From assembly GCA_965218425.1 (NCBI GenBank), contig OZ244621.1:2272001-2336000 (forward strand): a stretch of DNA of 64,000 bases, in the 5' to 3' direction. The position numbers were made by a program. Positions 12,001 through 21,000 of the stretch are shown here, piece by piece; the stretch's first letter is position 1, and each line of letters opens with the position of its first letter. The stretch is from an uncultured Candidatus Binatia bacterium. Its GTDB lineage: Bacteria; Desulfobacterota; Binatia; UBA9968; CAXXLF01.

Positions 12001-15000
12001 AAGCGTCTCCCAATAATCTAAGCCCTCTTCGTCCCAGAGACCCCGTCCTTCCACGGCCGCCCATCTTCTCTTCCTGTGGTGGTGATCGAGAAAAAAGTTA
12101 TAGAGGATCCGACTCAGCCACGCCTTCAGGTTGGTTCCAGGGGTGAACTGTTCGAATGAATCAAGGGCACGTAGATAGGCTTCTTGGACAAGGTCTTGAG
12201 CTTCCTGAGGGTCCCTCGATAGGTGTAGGGCAACTCGATAAAGGTGATCGAGGTGTTGCAGCGCCTCTTGGGCGAAGCGCTCTCTCCCGGCTTTGGTGTT
12301 TTTGCCCCTCCGTATCACGCGGCCATTCTAGCTGAGGGGATGGCCCGTGTCTACTTACTTAAATAGTGGTTCAGGTTTCGAGTCCACCACACCCGTGGGC
12401 CGATTCCCTCTGGGGAAGAGTTCCCACGGGCTCTACGACGTGGTGGGAAACACCTTTAGAGTGGACCTCCACGCCCGGAGAATAGTTTTGAAGGGATGTT
12501 CCTGGGATGATTTACCCGGCGCCTGTGGGGCGGCGCAAAAAACCGGAGGCGGCGGGAAGTGGGTTTATCCGGGTTGAAGTGGGTTGATGCGGGCTGACGG
12601 AACGAAGATGTTGATTTTGACTTGCCGCGAGATTGCTGATATTACCGAAATCAATCTGGTCGTATCGAAGAGGCGTCTATGCAGAGCTTCGCTGAGAAAA
12701 TAAGACAAAGCGGCGACAGCTTCCTCAAGCGCAAGGTGGAAACCCTGCAGGTTAACATGGGGAAGTACTGCAACCAGGCATGCCTGCACTGTCACGTGGA
12801 GGCGGGACCCACCCGGAAGGAAATCATGACTCTGGAAACGGTAGAGTCGGTGCTCCGTTTCCTCGAGAAGTCCGATGTGCCCACAGTGGACATCACGGGG
12901 GGCGCGCCGGAGCTCAACCCGCATTTCGACTACCTCGTGGAGCGCAGCGTCCAGCTTGGCCGCCACGTGATGGACCGATGCAATCTCACCGTCATCTTTG
13001 AACAGGGGAAGGAGTATCTCCCGGACTTCTTTCAAAAAAACCGGGTGGAGCTGATCTGCTCTCTTCCCTGCTACACAGAGGGGAACGTAGACCAACAGAG
13101 GGGCAAAGGGACCTTCAATCTGAGTATCCGGGCGCTGCGGCTTCTGAACGGCCTGGGATATGGAGTCGAAGGCACGGGTCTGGAGCTGCAATTGGTCTAT
13201 AACCCGGTGGGGGCTTACCTTCCGTCGCCCCAGGAACGATTGGAACAGGACTATAAGACTATCCTCAAGGAAGAATACGGCATCGTTTTTAACCATCTCT
13301 ACTGTCTTACCAATGTGCCCATCACTCGATTTGAGACCTTTCTGAAGGTGCGAAACGAGTATGACCGGTATATGGAGCTGATCCAGTCCGCGTTCAACCC
13401 GGATACCGTGGACAAGGTCATGTGCAGAAACATCTTGAGCGTAGGATGGGAGGGGTCCGTTTACGACTGTGACTTCAATCAGATGCTGGAGCTGCCGGTC
13501 TCGAACCGACAGGGTAAGCCGCTAAAGATCCAGGACCTCCATGCCGATGGCCTGGAAAATCAATCAATCGTGGTCGGAAATCACTGCTACGCCTGTACGG
13601 CGGGAGCCGGGAGTAGCTGCGGCGGTTCATTAATAGCGTAACCGCCGCTTTGCGCTGATGGTAAAACGCAAAGCGCATGGCGCTATACGCAAAGCGTCTT
13701 TTCAGTGACGGGTTACGAGTACCGAGTGGAAATTGAGGGTGGGTCAAGGGTGTAGTGAAGTCCGCACTGTCAACCCTCCACTCCCTAACCTGACCCTTAA
13801 ACACTTTCCACCGGCTACACCGTTTTCTGCTTACTGCGATCTTCATACGGTTTTCTTTGGCGTCTTGGCGCGAAAAACTCTTTTGAATTCGTTCTTTTAA
13901 AGAATTGATGGGTAGAATTCTAACGGCAAGGCGGGGCCGTGCAGGTCAGGCAGTGAGATTGAGGCGCCTAGACCCGGCCCCCCACAGGACCCGCAATTCG
14001 TTTGGGTTTTGCTCAGCTAGATGGTAAATTACCCCATGGCTGATACATTCCTAAAGCGCAAGAAGGAGCAGGATCGGCAGAAAAAAAAGAGGGAAAAAGA
14101 GGCCATGCGACAGGACCGTAAAGCGGAAAAAGCGAATCGTAGGCCCCTGACTCCAGGCGAAGACCCTGACATCGCGGGGATCAAGCCCGGCCCTCAACCG
14201 CCGATCGACTGGTAATCCGCCCCTTCACGAGCAACCTGACGTCCTTCCGCATTCACCCCTTGGACCAGAGGCCAAGTGCCGTCCTCTTTCAGCCTTATGA
14301 AAGACTTTTGCATGTCTCCGAACCCGGCGTTCTTTACCGCTCTCTGCCGGCAATCGTTGATCCGAATCGCTAAACGCGAATCAGGCGCTATCCTCTGCTT
14401 TACTCTGCTTCCGATCCGACTCCAGTGACGCCAGCGCCTCCTTTACCAGCTTGCGCCGTAATTCTTTCTCTTCCTCGCCCGTCAGGTTTGCCGCGCCGGT
14501 GACGTGGACTATGCCGTTGCCCAAAACGACGCGGTTGGAACCGACCATCTTTGCAATGGGCATGGCCGAGGTAATCTGGACCACCGGGATGCCCGCCTTT
14601 TCCAGCTCGGTTGATATCGCAGCTCCGCTGCGAGTGCTCGTTCCTCAGGTGGAGGTGAGGATGACGGCGTCGACCTCCTCCCGCTTCACTTTTTCGGCCA
14701 TCTCCCTGCCCAGGCGCCGCGTGTTCGAGAGCGGGTTCGATAGACCAGATGTGGAGATGAACTCGTGGTGGAGTTTTCCGATCCTGCCGCTTCTTTCCAT
14801 CTCGCGCATGGCGTCGAGGGGCACGAGACGGTCCGGATCCTGTTGAACGAATCTCGGATCATAGCCGCCGTGAGAGATCTCGTAGTCCTCCCCCCTGAGA
14901 TCATCCCGGCCGTCGATGCTATAGGAGCCCCACCGGGTGGCGGCTTGTCCTTCGATTTTGTCCGGGTTGCCCTTCGGAACGAGGCCGCCGTCGGTGATGA

Positions 15001-18000: not shown

Positions 18001-21000
18001 CGATCTCTTTGTTCCGCGCCGCCAGGGCGGCGATAAGCCTGTAGTTCGTCAACGGAACGTTGCCGTTTCCGGACGGTTCCGTCACCTCCGGGTTGTGCAG
18101 CTCGGTGGCGTACTTGTCGATATCCCCGAAGCGCAATTTTAGTTTCTGCAGCGGCTCGGCCACCAGTGAGCCGAAGACGGCCTGCTGGCTCGAGCCGGCA
18201 CCCACCCGGTGCATACCGACGGAATCCAGCCTTAGCCAAGGATGTTTCCCGTCGTCCCCGGAGACGTGGATGGCAACTCCCGCCAAAACATCCTCCAAGA
18301 CCGGTTGTTCGTGTTTGAGATGGCCTTGAAACTTCATCCCGAGTTTCGCCAGAGAGCCGCCCCCGACGACCACCACATTGCGGAACACACCCGCGCTCAC
18401 GAGGCTGCCGGCCAGCAGCAAAGCATGGTTCGGACCCGAGCAAAAGCCTTTGACGTCGACCCCGCTCGCCATGGAGCACCCGCACATTTCCCCGATGGCC
18501 TTCGCCAGGTTTCCTCCGCCGCGCTGGTAACGGTCGCCCACCGCCTCCTCGCCGCTGTTTAGAACATAATCAATGGCAGCGGCCTGTGCGCCTTCACCCT
18601 TCAGGAGCGTCTTCAGGGCCACTACCGCCGTCGCCTTGCAGGCCAGGTTCTCGAGGAGAATGTCGGGCGCAAGGGAGCGGTCCTCCCGATCGCCCGGCAG
18701 GACGCAGCCCACCAATTGCCCGTCCCGCAGATTGAGGGGGAGCGCGGGCGACGGACCGTCGATCCGAGCCTCGATGGCGGAGAGCGGCTTGCCGTCGTTG
18801 AGGTTCGCGGCTTCCACCTTCCCGAAGAGCGGATGGAGTTCCAACGCCCGCCGCGCCGTCCCGAGAAAACCTTCCTCGAGCCAAAGCAGCCCGAAGAGAT
18901 CGCAGAGCTTCATGACGGCGTAAAACTCCTCTTCCGGCATGAATTCACCATGCCGTTGCCGCCGTTCCGTATCCTGTCTCACGGCAAACCAGGGCCGTTG
19001 GAGGGATTTCAGTTCATCGGGGTAGATGGATCCTAGAAATACCCGGTTCGGCGGATAGGACAAAGCGTCCTCGAAGGAACGGAGCCGCTCCCGAATTCGT
19101 TCGCTTACCGCCGCTTCCCGGACGATTTCACGCGCCGGTTTCGAGCCGTGGGTGACAAGTCCGGGCGTATGAGATAAAAAGTAGCGAACGGCCTTGATGA
19201 CTGGTTGATTTCCCGGGGGCATGGTCCAGCACTATATCCATTAGGGGCTTACCGGGTCAATCCTGCTCGAAACGGACGGACACAGTTGAATACTCTCTCG
19301 CAATCCTACGTTTCCTCCCACGCCGAGGCTGCCGGGGCGAATCGCTGATGATCCGTCTCTCAACGATTCCCAATCGGGCGCACCTGATCAACTGGTTTGA
19401 ATGGGGGGAAGAGGCGTTCCGCGCGGCTCGAGGCCACAATAAGCCCTTGATGCTTTTTTTGCACGCCTTTTGGTGCCGTATCTGCCAGCGAATGGACGAG
19501 GACGCCTTCTCTAACGACGAGAATATCACGTTGCTGAACGCCTACTTCGTCTCGGTCCGGGCGGAGAACGCGAAGCGGCCCGACGTGGACGTTCGCTACA
19601 ATCAAAACGGGTGGCCCACGATTGTTTTCATGACCCCGGAGGGGGAACAGCTCGCCTGCGCGAACAGCCTTGACGCGGAGGCGCTCGGAAGCCTTTTGGT
19701 TCGGGTCTATGAGGCTAATCGGAAGATTCGAAACGAAGTTCGCGGGAAAAAGGGAACACTCGCACGGGCCCCACGCGAGGCCGCGAGTCGGCCGGACCCC
19801 ATCGACCATCGGGACTCTGGCGTTTCGGAGATTACCCAGCTGATCATGGGGCTCGCCGACCGCGTTCACGGCGGCTACGGGCATGGTCGGAAATATATCC
19901 ATTCGGATGCGAACGATTTTTTGCTCTCCCGTTATGGAGCGGCAAAGAATTCCGACTATCTCGATCACGTGTGTTTAACTCTCGACCGGATGCGGGAGAG
20001 TCCGATCCACGATCGTGAAGAGGGCGGGTACTACCGCACTGCCTCCGGTGAGGACTGGAGCGGCCCCCACCGGGAAAAGCTTCTGGCGGATCAGGCGGGC
20101 ATCCTTAACAACTGCCTGGGGGTTTTCGAGATCACTAAAAACCCAACCTATGCGCGTATGGGTGAAGGCATTATCGACTACCTGAATAACAGGCTTTTGG
20201 ATTCTTGCAGCGGAACCTATTTCGGTTGCGAGGATTTTATTCGAAGCGAAGACAAGGATGCTTCTTCCCGGGCAGGGTATTTCTCCATCCTGGACGACTG
20301 TATTTACACGGACGCGAACGCCGACGCCATCGGCGCTTACCTCAGAGCCTATGCCGTGTTGGGCAAGTCGGCCTGCAAGGAGATTGCGTTAAAGGCGCTG
20401 GAATTCATCTGGGACAAATGCCGGAGTCCCCGAGGGGGAGTCTATCATTACTTCGACGGCGCGCCTCACGGGCCGGGATTGCTCGATGATCAAGCGCGCC
20501 TGGGCGCGGTGTTGGTGCATGCATGGAAAGCCACCGGCGAAACTCGGTATCTGGACCGCGCGAAGGATTTGGCCGAATTCATTCTGGCGAGACTGAGAAA
20601 CCCGGCCGGCGGCTACTACGATCTTTCGGCGCCGGGAGCCGCATACCTCCGCTACCCGCTGACTCTGATCGAACGGAACGGAGCCGCTGCGGCGTTTTTT
20701 TTCGCCCTCGCCGAGTCCAGAGGCGAGGCCAAATACCGGGACGCAGGGGTTTGGGCCATCGGCGCGTTCACGGGAGATTTCGGTCGGTACGGAATTCACG
20801 CGGCGGGGTTCGGTCGAGCGCTCGCTGAATTCGTGCGGCGTCCTTAGTGCAAGCGGCTTGCGAAGGATACTCGCGCGGGATAAGACTTCACTCATCGACT
20901 CACCTAAGGAACGGGAGGAAAAAATGGCTGAAAGCGCGCTTCGAGGGAGTTGTCTTTGTAAATCGGTTCAGTATGAGTTGTGGCCGCCGTTAACGAGGTT

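Follow-up and report, generated by a model that had tools for sequence, protein, structure and literature searches.

What does a Grd-type selenoprotein reductase do in a cell that appears equipped for respiration? The window, a 64,000-nucleotide stretch from an uncultured Candidatus Binatia bacterium, carries on its minus strand (14381-19222; ORF calling, table 11) grdC, grdA, a grdE-like gene and grdB, in that order. An earlier note read this operon as a complete reductase for Stickland-type reductive deamination, in a genome with haem-copper oxidase genes. The oxidase genes are there (two COX1 homologues, 506 and 192 bits, in a single-contig genome that is 97.3% complete, on which all genome-wide checks were run), and the gene content suggests an aerobic lifestyle for the host cell. 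However, "complete" was an overstatement, as one canonical subunit, GrdD, is missing. We conclude that the locus is intact and belongs to a separate and widespread class of Grd-type selenoprotein reductases that lack GrdD. Its sequence sets it apart from the classical reductases of glycine and sarcosine, and it probably cleaves a different compound without direct ATP yield. We give this explanation as a whole, with its inferred non-glycine substrate, a probability of about 50%.

All four grd genes named earlier are present (family scores for PF07355, PF04723, PF09338 and NF040746). They appear under table 11 as five minus-strand ORFs: 17771-19222 (483 aa), 17459-17605 with 17120-17326, 15719-17059 (446 aa), 14645-15685 (346 aa) and 14381-14584. 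As proposed, an in-frame TGA read as selenocysteine joins the pieces of grdA (U49) and grdB (U347), and read-through translation places both at known selenocysteine positions. Selenoprotein A (17120..17605, minus strand, 161 aa; Sec49 codon 17459-17461) starts at the ATG at 17605, with Met7 at 17587 as the alternative. It has the motif C-F-V-U in the context THCFVUTASG, and scores 174 bits against PF04723 and 177 bits against NF040748 (cut-off 130). Selenoprotein B (14381..15685, minus strand, 434 aa; Sec347 codon 14645-14647) reads ILTSTUGTSTRSGAA around U347. The full selenocysteine machinery was also borne out: SelA (592 bits), SelB (413 bits), SelD (378 bits) and a tRNA-Sec at genome positions 1311894-1311988. 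A promoter-like site (TTGACC-18 nt-TATAGT; 19231..19260, minus strand) ends 9 nt upstream of the grdC start codon, though the consensus scan that found this one site finds 1.7 in shuffled sequence, which makes it weak evidence.

Each UGA is followed by a hairpin that is a candidate bacterial SECIS element. The grdB hairpin (14618..14632, minus strand; CGCAGC-GGA-GCUGCG, 15-29 nt past the U of UGA) has a fold energy no different from shuffles (z -0.59). All six of its pairs are unchanged in 16 of 16 relatives with 58-79% protein identity, while the wobble positions flanking it on both sides vary in those same relatives. The grdA hairpin (17425..17443, minus strand; CUUGACCU-GGA-AGGUCAAG, 18-36 nt past the U) is likewise not distinct from shuffles in energy (z -0.91). 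Across 19 relatives, 76% of its cells are paired, a share that falls to 24-59% in controls with slid partners; three pairs show compensatory changes, and RNAalifold alone returned no consensus structure.

The absence of GrdD is a property of a whole class. The best GrdD profile match in the host genome scores 17.9 bits, where the cut-off is 350 and a positive control reaches 551.9, and profile searches of the same genome found neither acetate kinase (Ack) nor phosphotransacetylase (Pta; PTA_PTB). A tblastn search with a real GrdD against this genome and 92 loci gave nothing below E 6. Of the 123 genomes of the order, 80 have a GrdC above its cut-off, matching the floor of 80 given earlier, and none has a GrdD above its own; nor was GrdD found in 30 genomes of other phyla that carry such loci. 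GrdD follows GrdC in 83/83 canonical loci and occurs in 0/93 loci of the GrdD-less class; in 83 of those 93, GrdA lies downstream of GrdC at a distance of no more than 1.2 kb. In the 90 GrdD-less loci that were clustered, no extra gene is conserved beside grdC-grdA other than a thioredoxin gene, which lies between the two in 25. This thioredoxin gene shows that the class still relies on thioredoxin-type reduction. Thus the absence of all three proteins, as first reported, holds, and with it the point that the fate of the acetyl intermediate must differ from the clostridial scheme.

GrdC itself carries the mark of the class. The window protein (17771..19222, minus strand, 483 aa) scores 615 bits against NF040746 (cut-off 450), has a thiolase fold in which Cys261 and His430 do not vary, and belongs to a GrdD-independent form of protein C marked by Val228, Arg231-Tyr232, His376 and the lack of a C-terminal tail. 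Position 228 is Val or Ile in 91/91 GrdD-less proteins and Cys in 83/83 GrdD-linked ones; position 376 is His in 89/91 and Gln in 83/83; and the median tail is 3 residues as against 34, in sets that each take the top 80 from more than 550 relatives, leave intermediate forms outside the sample and include kin that are not independent. The GrdD-less proteins form their own clade (support 1.0). The nearest folds to the AF2 model (pLDDT 92.1) are KAS III, SpoVAD and thiolases (Foldseek E ~1e-10), and searches of the PDB returned no solved GrdC structure. The stretch of GrdC residues 188-280 aligns with the part of KAS III that surrounds its nucleophilic Cys (1mzj, E 8.5e-7), the nucleophile itself aligning with Cys261. 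The FabH His-Gln-Ala-Asn is paired by hhalign (63% probability) with GrdC 390-393, not with His376.

The substrate subunits also depart from the classical scheme. The ORF of the grdE-like gene is open from a TTG at 17059, but Pfam and relatives' alignments begin at the ATG at 16999, so the start is probably the latter (15719..16999, minus strand, 426 aa). The protein scores 246 bits against Gly_reductase (PF09338), and even its best NCBIfam matches, GrdG (172/780) and FarE (140/675), stay under their cut-offs. In GrdE, Cys242 is the precursor of the pyruvoyl cofactor, according to the part of PMC9908766 consulted. The aligned residue here is a histidine (His268 in 446-aa numbering, His248 in 426-aa numbering), with Ser266, Ser269 and Ser270 beside it and no Cys within ~50 residues of the site. 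The pyruvoyl Cys is present in 52/56 GrdE-type proteins of GrdD loci versus 2/66 of GrdD-less loci. Among the 123 genomes of the order, 86 hold a window-type GrdE (best E <= 1e-150), in the form of orthologues with open frames and 59-92% identity.

GrdB tells a similar story. It belongs to the family (PF07355, 430 bits) and subfamily (TIGR01918, 455 bits), and it misses every substrate-specific NCBIfam cut-off: sarcosine GrdF, its best, at 472/800, GrdH at 424/775 and GrdB at 421/602. Its selenocysteine motif is U-G-T-S-T-R-S (UxxSxxS) in place of UxxCxxC, with SGD in place of CGD. Residues U+3/U+6 are Cys-Cys in 76/76 GrdB matches from GrdD-linked loci; in GrdD-less loci they are Gly-Cys (33), Cys-Cys (13), Ser-Ser (9, including the window), Ser-Cys (7) and five others. 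Moreover, of the eight elements of the GrdB/GrdF substrate motifs, as given in the part of PMC9751293 consulted, the window protein misses seven, and it matches neither motif; 0/61 GrdD-less homologues match them, versus 60/68 GrdD-linked ones. Together with the histidine in GrdE, these misses leave a Stickland-type deamination of glycine or sarcosine unsupported. UGTSTRS, Sec codon included, is identical in all readable GrdB sequences, 10/10 from the Binatia loci sample and 53/53 from loci found with the neighbouring DUF255 protein as query.

That neighbour is part of the picture. Divergent from the grd operon lies a gene for a DUF255 (Thioredox_DsbH) thioredoxin-fold protein (19348..20847, plus strand, 499 aa; PF03190, 74.6 bits), which has a W-C43-x-x-C46 motif and a C-terminal (alpha/alpha)6-barrel part. 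It matches PDB 7tkv (hmm E 8e-45, Foldseek E 3e-18), the thioredoxin domain of its model having low confidence, and its CxxC is unchanged in 11/11 sequences. The gene adjoins window-type GrdE/GrdB in 8/10 sampled Binatia loci, and 62 of 80 loci found with the protein as query carry window-type GrdE/GrdB. The subfamily is narrow (117 relatives in a species-level genome collection, by two sequence patterns), and it is genomically linked to GrdE/GrdB of the UxxSxxS type. We propose that it may be their dedicated redox partner. The substrate module is thus a GrdE-like protein without the pyruvoyl Cys, a UxxSxxS GrdB and a conserved DUF255 CxxC neighbour, the type kept through most of the order; the shared module is GrdA (CxxU) with a GrdC of its own clade. 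The host genus has joined the two modules into one operon. Other neighbours in relatives' loci are mixed (SBP_bac_5, NMT1, PEP_mutase, luciferase-like and amidohydrolase genes), with no consistent substrate hint.

How might such an enzyme work? Lacking the carbonyl cofactor on which a Schiff base could form, it probably does not use glycine or sarcosine. We propose, as a guess, a betaine-like X-CH2-COO- substrate in which X can depart without such help. This would be a quaternary amine of the betaine type, or perhaps a sulfonium, halo- or similar acetate. Glycine betaine itself is possible. As the textbook scheme has it, Sec347 of GrdB would displace X, take the carboxymethyl group and pass it on to Sec49 of GrdA. 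Cys46 of GrdA would then form a Se-S bond, while the C2 unit would be trapped as a thioester on Cys261 of thiolase-fold GrdC. Because GrdD, Ack and Pta are lacking, the acetyl group would be released either as acetyl-CoA or as acetate, which the acetyl-CoA synthetase of this genome (Acs, 986 bits) could activate, with no substrate-level phosphorylation. Electrons would come from NAD(P)H by way of a thioredoxin-type chain, and the two thiols that canonical GrdB has in cis may here be provided in trans by the DUF255 protein. A mechanism of this kind would make the system a carbon-assimilating bond-cleavage module of a respiring bacterium rather than a fermentative energy module.

Other explanations deserve weighing. 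The locus could encode a genuine glycine betaine reductase, with subunits like GrdI and GrdH and only the last step unlike the clostridial enzyme; the trimethylamine released could be oxidized further by a methylotrophic cell. Binatota are described as methylamine-using methylotrophs in the part of PMC8262859 consulted, and in the betaine locus of Enterococcus gilvus the pyruvoyl Cys is likewise missing from GrdI. We nevertheless hold this to be rather unlikely: GrdB falls far short of the GrdH cut-off and is slightly nearer GrdF, E. gilvus GrdH has UxxCxxC, and the genome search found no BCCT betaine transporter. The next gene after DUF255 in the window, a member of the GFA family, fits betaine use but is retained only inside the genus. 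Quite unlikely is that acetyl phosphate is still the product, made through phosphorolysis by an unrecognized protein or by GrdC and consumed by something other than Ack or Pta. GrdC does exceed the curated cut-off for component C beta, a non-homologous replacement for GrdD would escape profile searches, and a GrdD analogue and hydrolysis by GrdC look alike in sequence; yet only thioredoxin recurs as an extra gene, class GrdC lacks the Cys228 and tail universal in GrdD-linked GrdC, and this genome has no Ack or Pta to consume the product.

A classical glycine or sarcosine reductase, with its carbonyl cofactor derived from serine or carried on GrdB, we consider very unlikely. Four Pfam-level family memberships, the GrdF score and the three serines beside the aligned Cys242 site speak for it; the histidine at that site (Cys in only two of 66 class members), the missed equivalog cut-offs, the unmatched motifs of the class and the lack of GrdD, Ack and Pta speak against it. 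Least credible of all is an inactive remnant, or TGA codons that are plain stops. Hairpin energies indistinct from shuffles are compatible with decay, but open-frame orthologues in 86 genomes, an identical Sec codon and motif in 53 sequences, RNA-level conservation of the grdB hairpin and complete Sec machinery are not what a remnant would leave.

We return to a distinct GrdD-less reductase, and to its likenesses with known systems. Glycine reductase of Acetoanaerobium noterae (GrdE/GrdB, GrdA, GrdC/GrdD; order trxB...grdE-grdA-grdB-grdC-grdD) has the same four protein families, with Sec codons at homologous positions and identities to the window proteins of 41% (GrdB), 43% (GrdA), 43% (GrdC) and 28% (GrdE). 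The window locus departs from it in the histidine at the Cys242 position of GrdE, in a GrdB that misses the published glycine motif (PMC9751293, as consulted), in the lack of GrdD, Ack and Pta, and in its gene order, grdC-grdA-grdE-grdB. Betaine reductase, for which plasmid pCR1A of E. gilvus is the reference (GrdH/GrdI with GrdA, GrdC and GrdD; trxB-trx-grdA-grdC-grdD-grdI-grdH-BCCT), likewise pairs a CxxU selenoprotein A and a GrdC subunit with a selenoprotein B that has its Sec at the same position and a GrdE-family partner devoid of the pyruvoyl cysteine. The window operon differs from it in lacking GrdD, trxB, trxA and BCCT, in the UxxSxxS of its GrdB and the low GrdH score, and in a GrdC from another clade. 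That GrdC shares its fold, including the region of the nucleophilic Cys, with KAS III (FabH), other thiolase-fold enzymes and SpoVAD; it has an additional N-terminal region of ~180 residues, and the KAS III His/Asn do not map onto it with confidence. Finally, unlike the betaine locus, the window locus has a DUF255 CxxC protein as its conserved neighbour. Brucella abortus Bab1_2064 (PDB 7tkv), likewise Thioredox_DsbH, combines an N-terminal thioredoxin-like CxxC domain with an (alpha/alpha)6 barrel, in 668 residues to the 499 of the window protein.

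Under translation table 11, the minus strand between 14381 and 19222 holds five open reading frames, and reading TGA as selenocysteine joins two pairs of them into GrdB and GrdA. GrdB then is one protein of 434 residues with selenocysteine at position 347 (ILTST-U-GTSTRSGAA), and GrdA one of 161 residues with selenocysteine at position 49 (THCFV-U-TASG). The genes lie in the order grdC, grdA, grdE-like, grdB. The gene names in the earlier note, which took the operon for a Stickland-type glycine, sarcosine or betaine reductase, are borne out by family scans, with 430 bits for GRDB, 174 for GRDA, 246 for Gly_reductase and, over a cut-off of 450, 615 for component C beta (NF040746). 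GrdA carries the CxxU motif of selenoprotein A (C-F-V-U49; NF040748, 177 bits, cut-off 130). For the GrdE-like protein, the alignments of Pfam and of all relatives begin at the ATG at 16999, so this is the most likely start.

The window's own genome (G000) encodes SelA (592 bits), SelB (413 bits), SelD (378 bits) and a tRNA-Sec (contig positions 1311894-1311988). SelD is probably a selenoprotein itself, since its match (G000:C1:1307623-1308549) holds one in-frame TGA. A hairpin lies 3' of both UGA codons, in grdA and grdB. Its stability is no greater than that of shuffled sequence (z -0.91 in grdA and -0.59 in grdB), and an Rfam scan of 12000-22000 at E ≤ 1 matched no family. Comparison with relatives is more telling than hairpin energy alone. 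In grdB, six pairs are invariant among 16 genes whose proteins are 58-79% identical to the window's, and the flanking wobble positions vary on both sides. In grdA, 76% of cells pair, a share that falls to 24-59% on sliding the partners, and compensatory change is seen in three pairs; RNAalifold alone gave no consensus for this hairpin. The marks of a bacterial selenoprotein gene are thus all present: an in-frame UGA at a known selenocysteine site, a downstream hairpin, and SelA, SelB, SelD and tRNA-Sec in the genome.

Three parts of the clostridial scheme were sought by six-frame profile searches of G000, a single contig of 4.46 Mb that is 97.3% complete. None of them was found: GrdD reached at best 17.9 bits, where the cut-off is 350, and neither acetate kinase (PF00871) nor a PTA_PTB domain (PF01515) gave a match. 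The GrdD search is sound, because the same profile detects the annotated grdD on an Enterococcus gilvus plasmid at 551.9 bits. Moreover, tblastn with the E. gilvus GrdD returned nothing below E 6 in G000 or in 92 related loci. Across the order, 80 of 123 genomes have a GrdC above the cut-off and none has a GrdD above its own, tallies that include three unpublished genomes (G051, G054 and G073) and become 78 and 0 of 120 without them. Nor was GrdD found in any of 30 genomes from other phyla with a close relative of this grdC; these are titled Entotheonella, Dehalococcoidia/Chloroflexota, Pseudonocardiales, Desulfobaccales, Acidobacteriota and others. Neither a two-subunit protein C (GrdC with GrdD) nor a route from acetyl phosphate to ATP through acetate kinase was found in the window's genome.

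The absence of GrdD goes with a distinct GrdC, the thiolase-fold subunit of protein C. We compared the window and 92 loci found with a Binatia GrdC, two of which duplicate others, with a second set of 83 loci found with the Acetoanaerobium GrdC or taken from plasmid records. Each GrdC set was drawn as the best 80 from over 550 relatives, so intermediates may exist. GrdD follows GrdC directly in 83/83 loci of the second set and is present in 0/93 of the first. GrdA lies within 1.2 kb downstream of GrdC in 83/93 loci of the first set and in 0/83 of the second. The proteins themselves (91 first-set and 83 second-set sequences) differ in step. Position 228 is Val or Ile in 91/91 first-set sequences and Cys in 83/83 of the second set; position 376 is His in 89/91 and Gln in 83/83; positions 231-232 read Arg-Tyr in the first and Met-Asn in the second; and the tail after Arg479 has a median of 3 residues versus 34. 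Cys261 and His430 are invariant in all 174 sequences. In a FastTree phylogeny a single branch splits the two sets (support 1.0, length 0.59). The window falls in what we informally call the GrdD-less class: its GrdC has His376, no Cys228 and no tail, grdA is directly downstream, and the genome is without GrdD.

Residues 188-280 of GrdC align with KAS III around the nucleophilic cysteine (1mzj, E 8.5e-7; also by hhalign against a Binatia FabH). The AlphaFold model (pLDDT 92.1), in which loop 227-230 alone among the internal segments falls below pLDDT 50, has KAS III, SpoVAD and thiolases as the nearest folds to the predicted structure. We dropped the idea that His376 is the histidine of the KAS III Cys-His-Asn/His triad, as hhalign (63% probability) did not align the two.

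The substrate module, GrdE-like and GrdB, also departs from the glycine enzyme. Residue 242 of Acetoanaerobium GrdE, the Cys of S-G-N-C-V, is the one that in C. difficile GrdE was shown to give rise to the pyruvoyl cofactor (PMC9908766). The window's GrdE-like protein has His in this column and cysteines only at 27, 77 and 318 of its 446-residue frame, all distant from it, and so does not contain the pyruvoyl-forming Cys of a GrdE proprotein. A Cys occupies the column in 52 of 56 GrdE-type proteins beside GrdD versus 2 of 66 in GrdD-less loci, in a fast alignment that makes the column less certain for distant members. The selenocysteine motif of GrdB is altered too. All 76 GrdB homologues of GrdD loci have UxxCxxC; the window has U-G-T-S-T-R-S, and at the two variable positions the GrdB proteins of GrdD-less loci read GC (33), CC (13), SS (9), SC (7) or otherwise (5). 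Tested against the GrdB and GrdF motifs of Nobu et al. (PMC9751293), 60 of 68 homologues from GrdD loci match, versus 0 of 61 from GrdD-less loci. The window's GrdB fits one of eight published motif elements, and its CGD has become SGD.

Family models agree with the motifs. GrdB passes the broad selenoprotein B subfamily TIGR01918 (455 bits, cut-off 65), and it falls below every substrate-specific NCBIfam cut-off: GrdF 472 of 800, GrdH (NF040795) 424 of 775 and GrdB (TIGR01917) 421 of 602. It therefore lacks the marks of a glycine-specific selenoprotein B, though selenocysteine is present. Sarcosine reductase fares no better, with GrdG at 172 of 780 in addition to the low GrdF score and the GrdF motif unmatched. 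By its sequence, the window's substrate module is not of the glycine type.

This variant is the rule in the order: a substrate module is present in 86 of 123 genomes and GrdD in none. The count rests on window-type GrdE, that of loci with the U-x-x-S-x-x-S motif in GrdB, whose best match reaches E ≤ 1e-150 in those 86 genomes and E ≤ 1e-20 in 98 of the 123. The full-length matches listed are 59-92% identical, and in most genomes of the order they lie far from grdC-grdA. We considered lateral acquisition of the window's substrate module and rejected it, with orthologues 59-75% identical spread through the order; only the grdC-grdA pair clusters with other phyla. Within the GrdD-less clade of the GrdC tree, Binatia sequences (loci L005-L014 and the window) sit in three separate places: the window with Chloroflexota and Entotheonella, six with Actinomycetota, and four in a deep clade of their own. 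Given this scatter of Binatia GrdC, and a GrdE/GrdB module that looks vertically inherited, the A/C module may have passed between phyla. Many Binatia genomes (for example G091, G109 and G079) have several genes of the GrdE-like kind, with as many as 14 matches in G091, and mostly one grdC-grdA pair, which suggests that several substrate modules share one A/C module. Short GrdB/PrdB-like frames upstream of grdC in Dehalococcoidia loci (L027:4750-5220, L019:4831-5424 and L024:4852-5439) cover the C-terminal third of the GRDB profile only, with TGA in a T-U-P-L-C context; G000 has a weak match of the same kind (G000:C1:3467029-3467406, 21.5 bits).

Divergent from the operon, at 19348-20847, lies a gene for a DUF255 (Thioredox_DsbH) protein, the only widely recurring neighbour in the loci compared. 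Its W-C-x-x-C motif is invariant in 11/11 orthologues. The C-terminal part is of the (alpha/alpha)6 epimerase type, and the thioredoxin domain is modelled with low confidence. Among solved proteins, the uncharacterised 7tkv comes closest to the DUF255 protein. In 10 window-type GrdE loci from five genera, GrdB always reads LTST-U-GTSTRSGAA and a DUF255 gene is adjacent in 8. Searching from the other side, with DUF255 as the query, gave 62 of 80 loci with window-type GrdE or GrdB within 700 nt; some of these belong to genomes sampled before, and related loci are not independent of one another. Counting only loci whose flanks are complete gives 49 of 59; of the ten misses, two have the window's own arrangement, with grdC-grdA in between. 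The GrdB motif is UGTSTRS in 53/53 readable sequences. Record titles name Dehalococcoidia, SAR202 or Chloroflexota for at least 18 of the loci and Nitrospinota for two. The genes come in several orders (DUF255-E-B, E-B-DUF255, B-DUF255-E, or divergent), and this shuffling without separation argues for a functional tie between DUF255 and GrdE/GrdB. An ordinary thioredoxin gene (PF00085, CxPC motif) stands between grdC and grdA in 25 of 90 clustered GrdD-less loci, from which we infer that thioredoxin-type reduction is retained in the class. These 25 loci (within L042-L093, for example L059:7406-7774) are titled Actinomycetota, Desulfobacterota and Chloroflexota.

The remaining neighbours do not name the substrate. 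We rejected an assignment from gene context as too mixed, across the window, Binatia grdC-grdA loci, Dehalococcoidia loci with the U-x-x-S-x-x-S motif and Binatia GrdE/GrdB loci. Among 12 Binatia loci, SBP_bac_5 occurs in 4, NMT1 in 4 and PEP_mutase in 3, which are possible but inconsistent hints. The family-5 solute-binding protein SBP_bac_5 adjoins DUF255/GrdE/GrdB at L004:4655-6262, L197:3593-5125, L198:6135-7664 and L199:4646-6235. A class-I pyridine-nucleotide disulfide oxidoreductase frame on the plus strand (10362-11573, probably from near 10203, and without the first ~45 profile positions) could encode an electron donor of the Grd system; distant homologues (25-29% identity) lie no more than ~3 kb from grdC-grdA in the Binatia loci L007, L010 and L013. 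An ArsS-type radical SAM '(seleno)protein' gene (12679-13641, plus strand; TIGR04167, 443 bits) lies ~700 nt beyond the end of grdB and is kept there in a same-genus genome. Directly after the DUF255 gene, on the plus strand at 20858-21328, is a gene of the GFA family (glutathione-dependent formaldehyde-activating enzyme fold), kept in this position only within the genus. G000 has two COX1 homologues, which by their sequences show respiratory capacity and do not say when the operon is expressed. The second, divergent one (G000:C1:2270045-2271382, 192 bits) lies ~0.6 kb before the window.

With the parts list, its conservation and the class-specific differences established, we propose a mechanism. 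The GrdE-like protein would have no carbonyl cofactor to activate a primary or secondary amine, and the substrate would more likely be a carboxymethyl compound whose leaving group is intrinsically good, as for betaine reductase. If Andreesen's textbook scheme holds (as summarised in PMC13188914), Sec347 of GrdB would pass the unit to Sec49 of GrdA, and from there it would reach a thiol of protein C. The only candidate for that thiol would be Cys261 of GrdC. In the clostridial enzyme, Cys359 of GrdD is reported as the acetyl-carrying thiol. Given that GrdD, Ack and Pta are missing, acetyl-CoA would be a sensible product, as would acetate activated by the genome's Acs (986 bits). The CxxC of DUF255 may stand in for the two cysteines lost from GrdB.

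A further-reaching reading has, in our estimate, about one chance in four. GrdD-less systems would form an enzyme family of their own in respiring, often aerobic bacteria; protein B would have a thioredoxin-fold protein, here DUF255, as a working subunit; GrdC alone would turn the selenoether-bound C2 unit into acetyl-CoA; and the paralogous GrdE/GrdB modules (one Binatia genome has as many as 14 GrdE-like matches) would cut the C-N, C-S or C-halogen bonds of different X-CH2-COO- osmolytes. If so, growth of methylotrophic Binatia would draw on the acetyl unit as well as on the methylated amine that is released. If the mechanism is true, a large unannotated group of selenium-dependent bond-cleaving enzymes is at work in oxygen-respiring bacteria, GrdD-less systems are wrongly labelled 'glycine reductase' by automatic annotation and wrongly counted in pathway calls such as the reductive glycine pathway, and the DUF255 family gains its first functional context. 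The class is also seen in records titled Entotheonella, Chloroflexota and SAR202, Pseudonocardiaceae, Desulfobacterota, Nitrospinota and others.

In public annotation the genes already carry their family names, and single Grd hits in oxic samples date back to 2005 (PMC1088965). A 2026 review describes Grd as ATP-yielding selenoenzymes of anaerobes and selenoproteins as rarely kept by aerobic bacteria (PMC13188914). A 2022 survey reports GrdBE in only 0.35% of species after a glycine-motif filter (PMC9751293), a filter that would discard the proteins found here. Within the literature searched, which excluded subscription journals and supplements, we found no account of a GrdD-less system, of Grd in Binatia or of a link between DUF255 and Grd; no title or abstract opening among papers on GrdC with GrdD addresses a GrdD-less system, and none of the papers listed for DUF255 or YyaL has either name together with Grd terms. 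The present analysis adds counts across the order and across phyla, backed by a positive control, the markers of the GrdC classes, the test against the published GrdB and GrdF motifs, and the module of DUF255, GrdE and GrdB with the U-x-x-S-x-x-S motif.

The nearest described systems are betaine reductase and glycine reductase. Both share protein families with the window's system, but the features that define them are absent from it. For betaine reductase (GrdH/GrdI), the window's GrdB scores 424 against the 775 of the GrdH equivalog NF040795. Yet in one respect the two agree: E. gilvus GrdI, with Phe, and the window's GrdE-like protein, with His, are both without a Cys in the Cys242 column.
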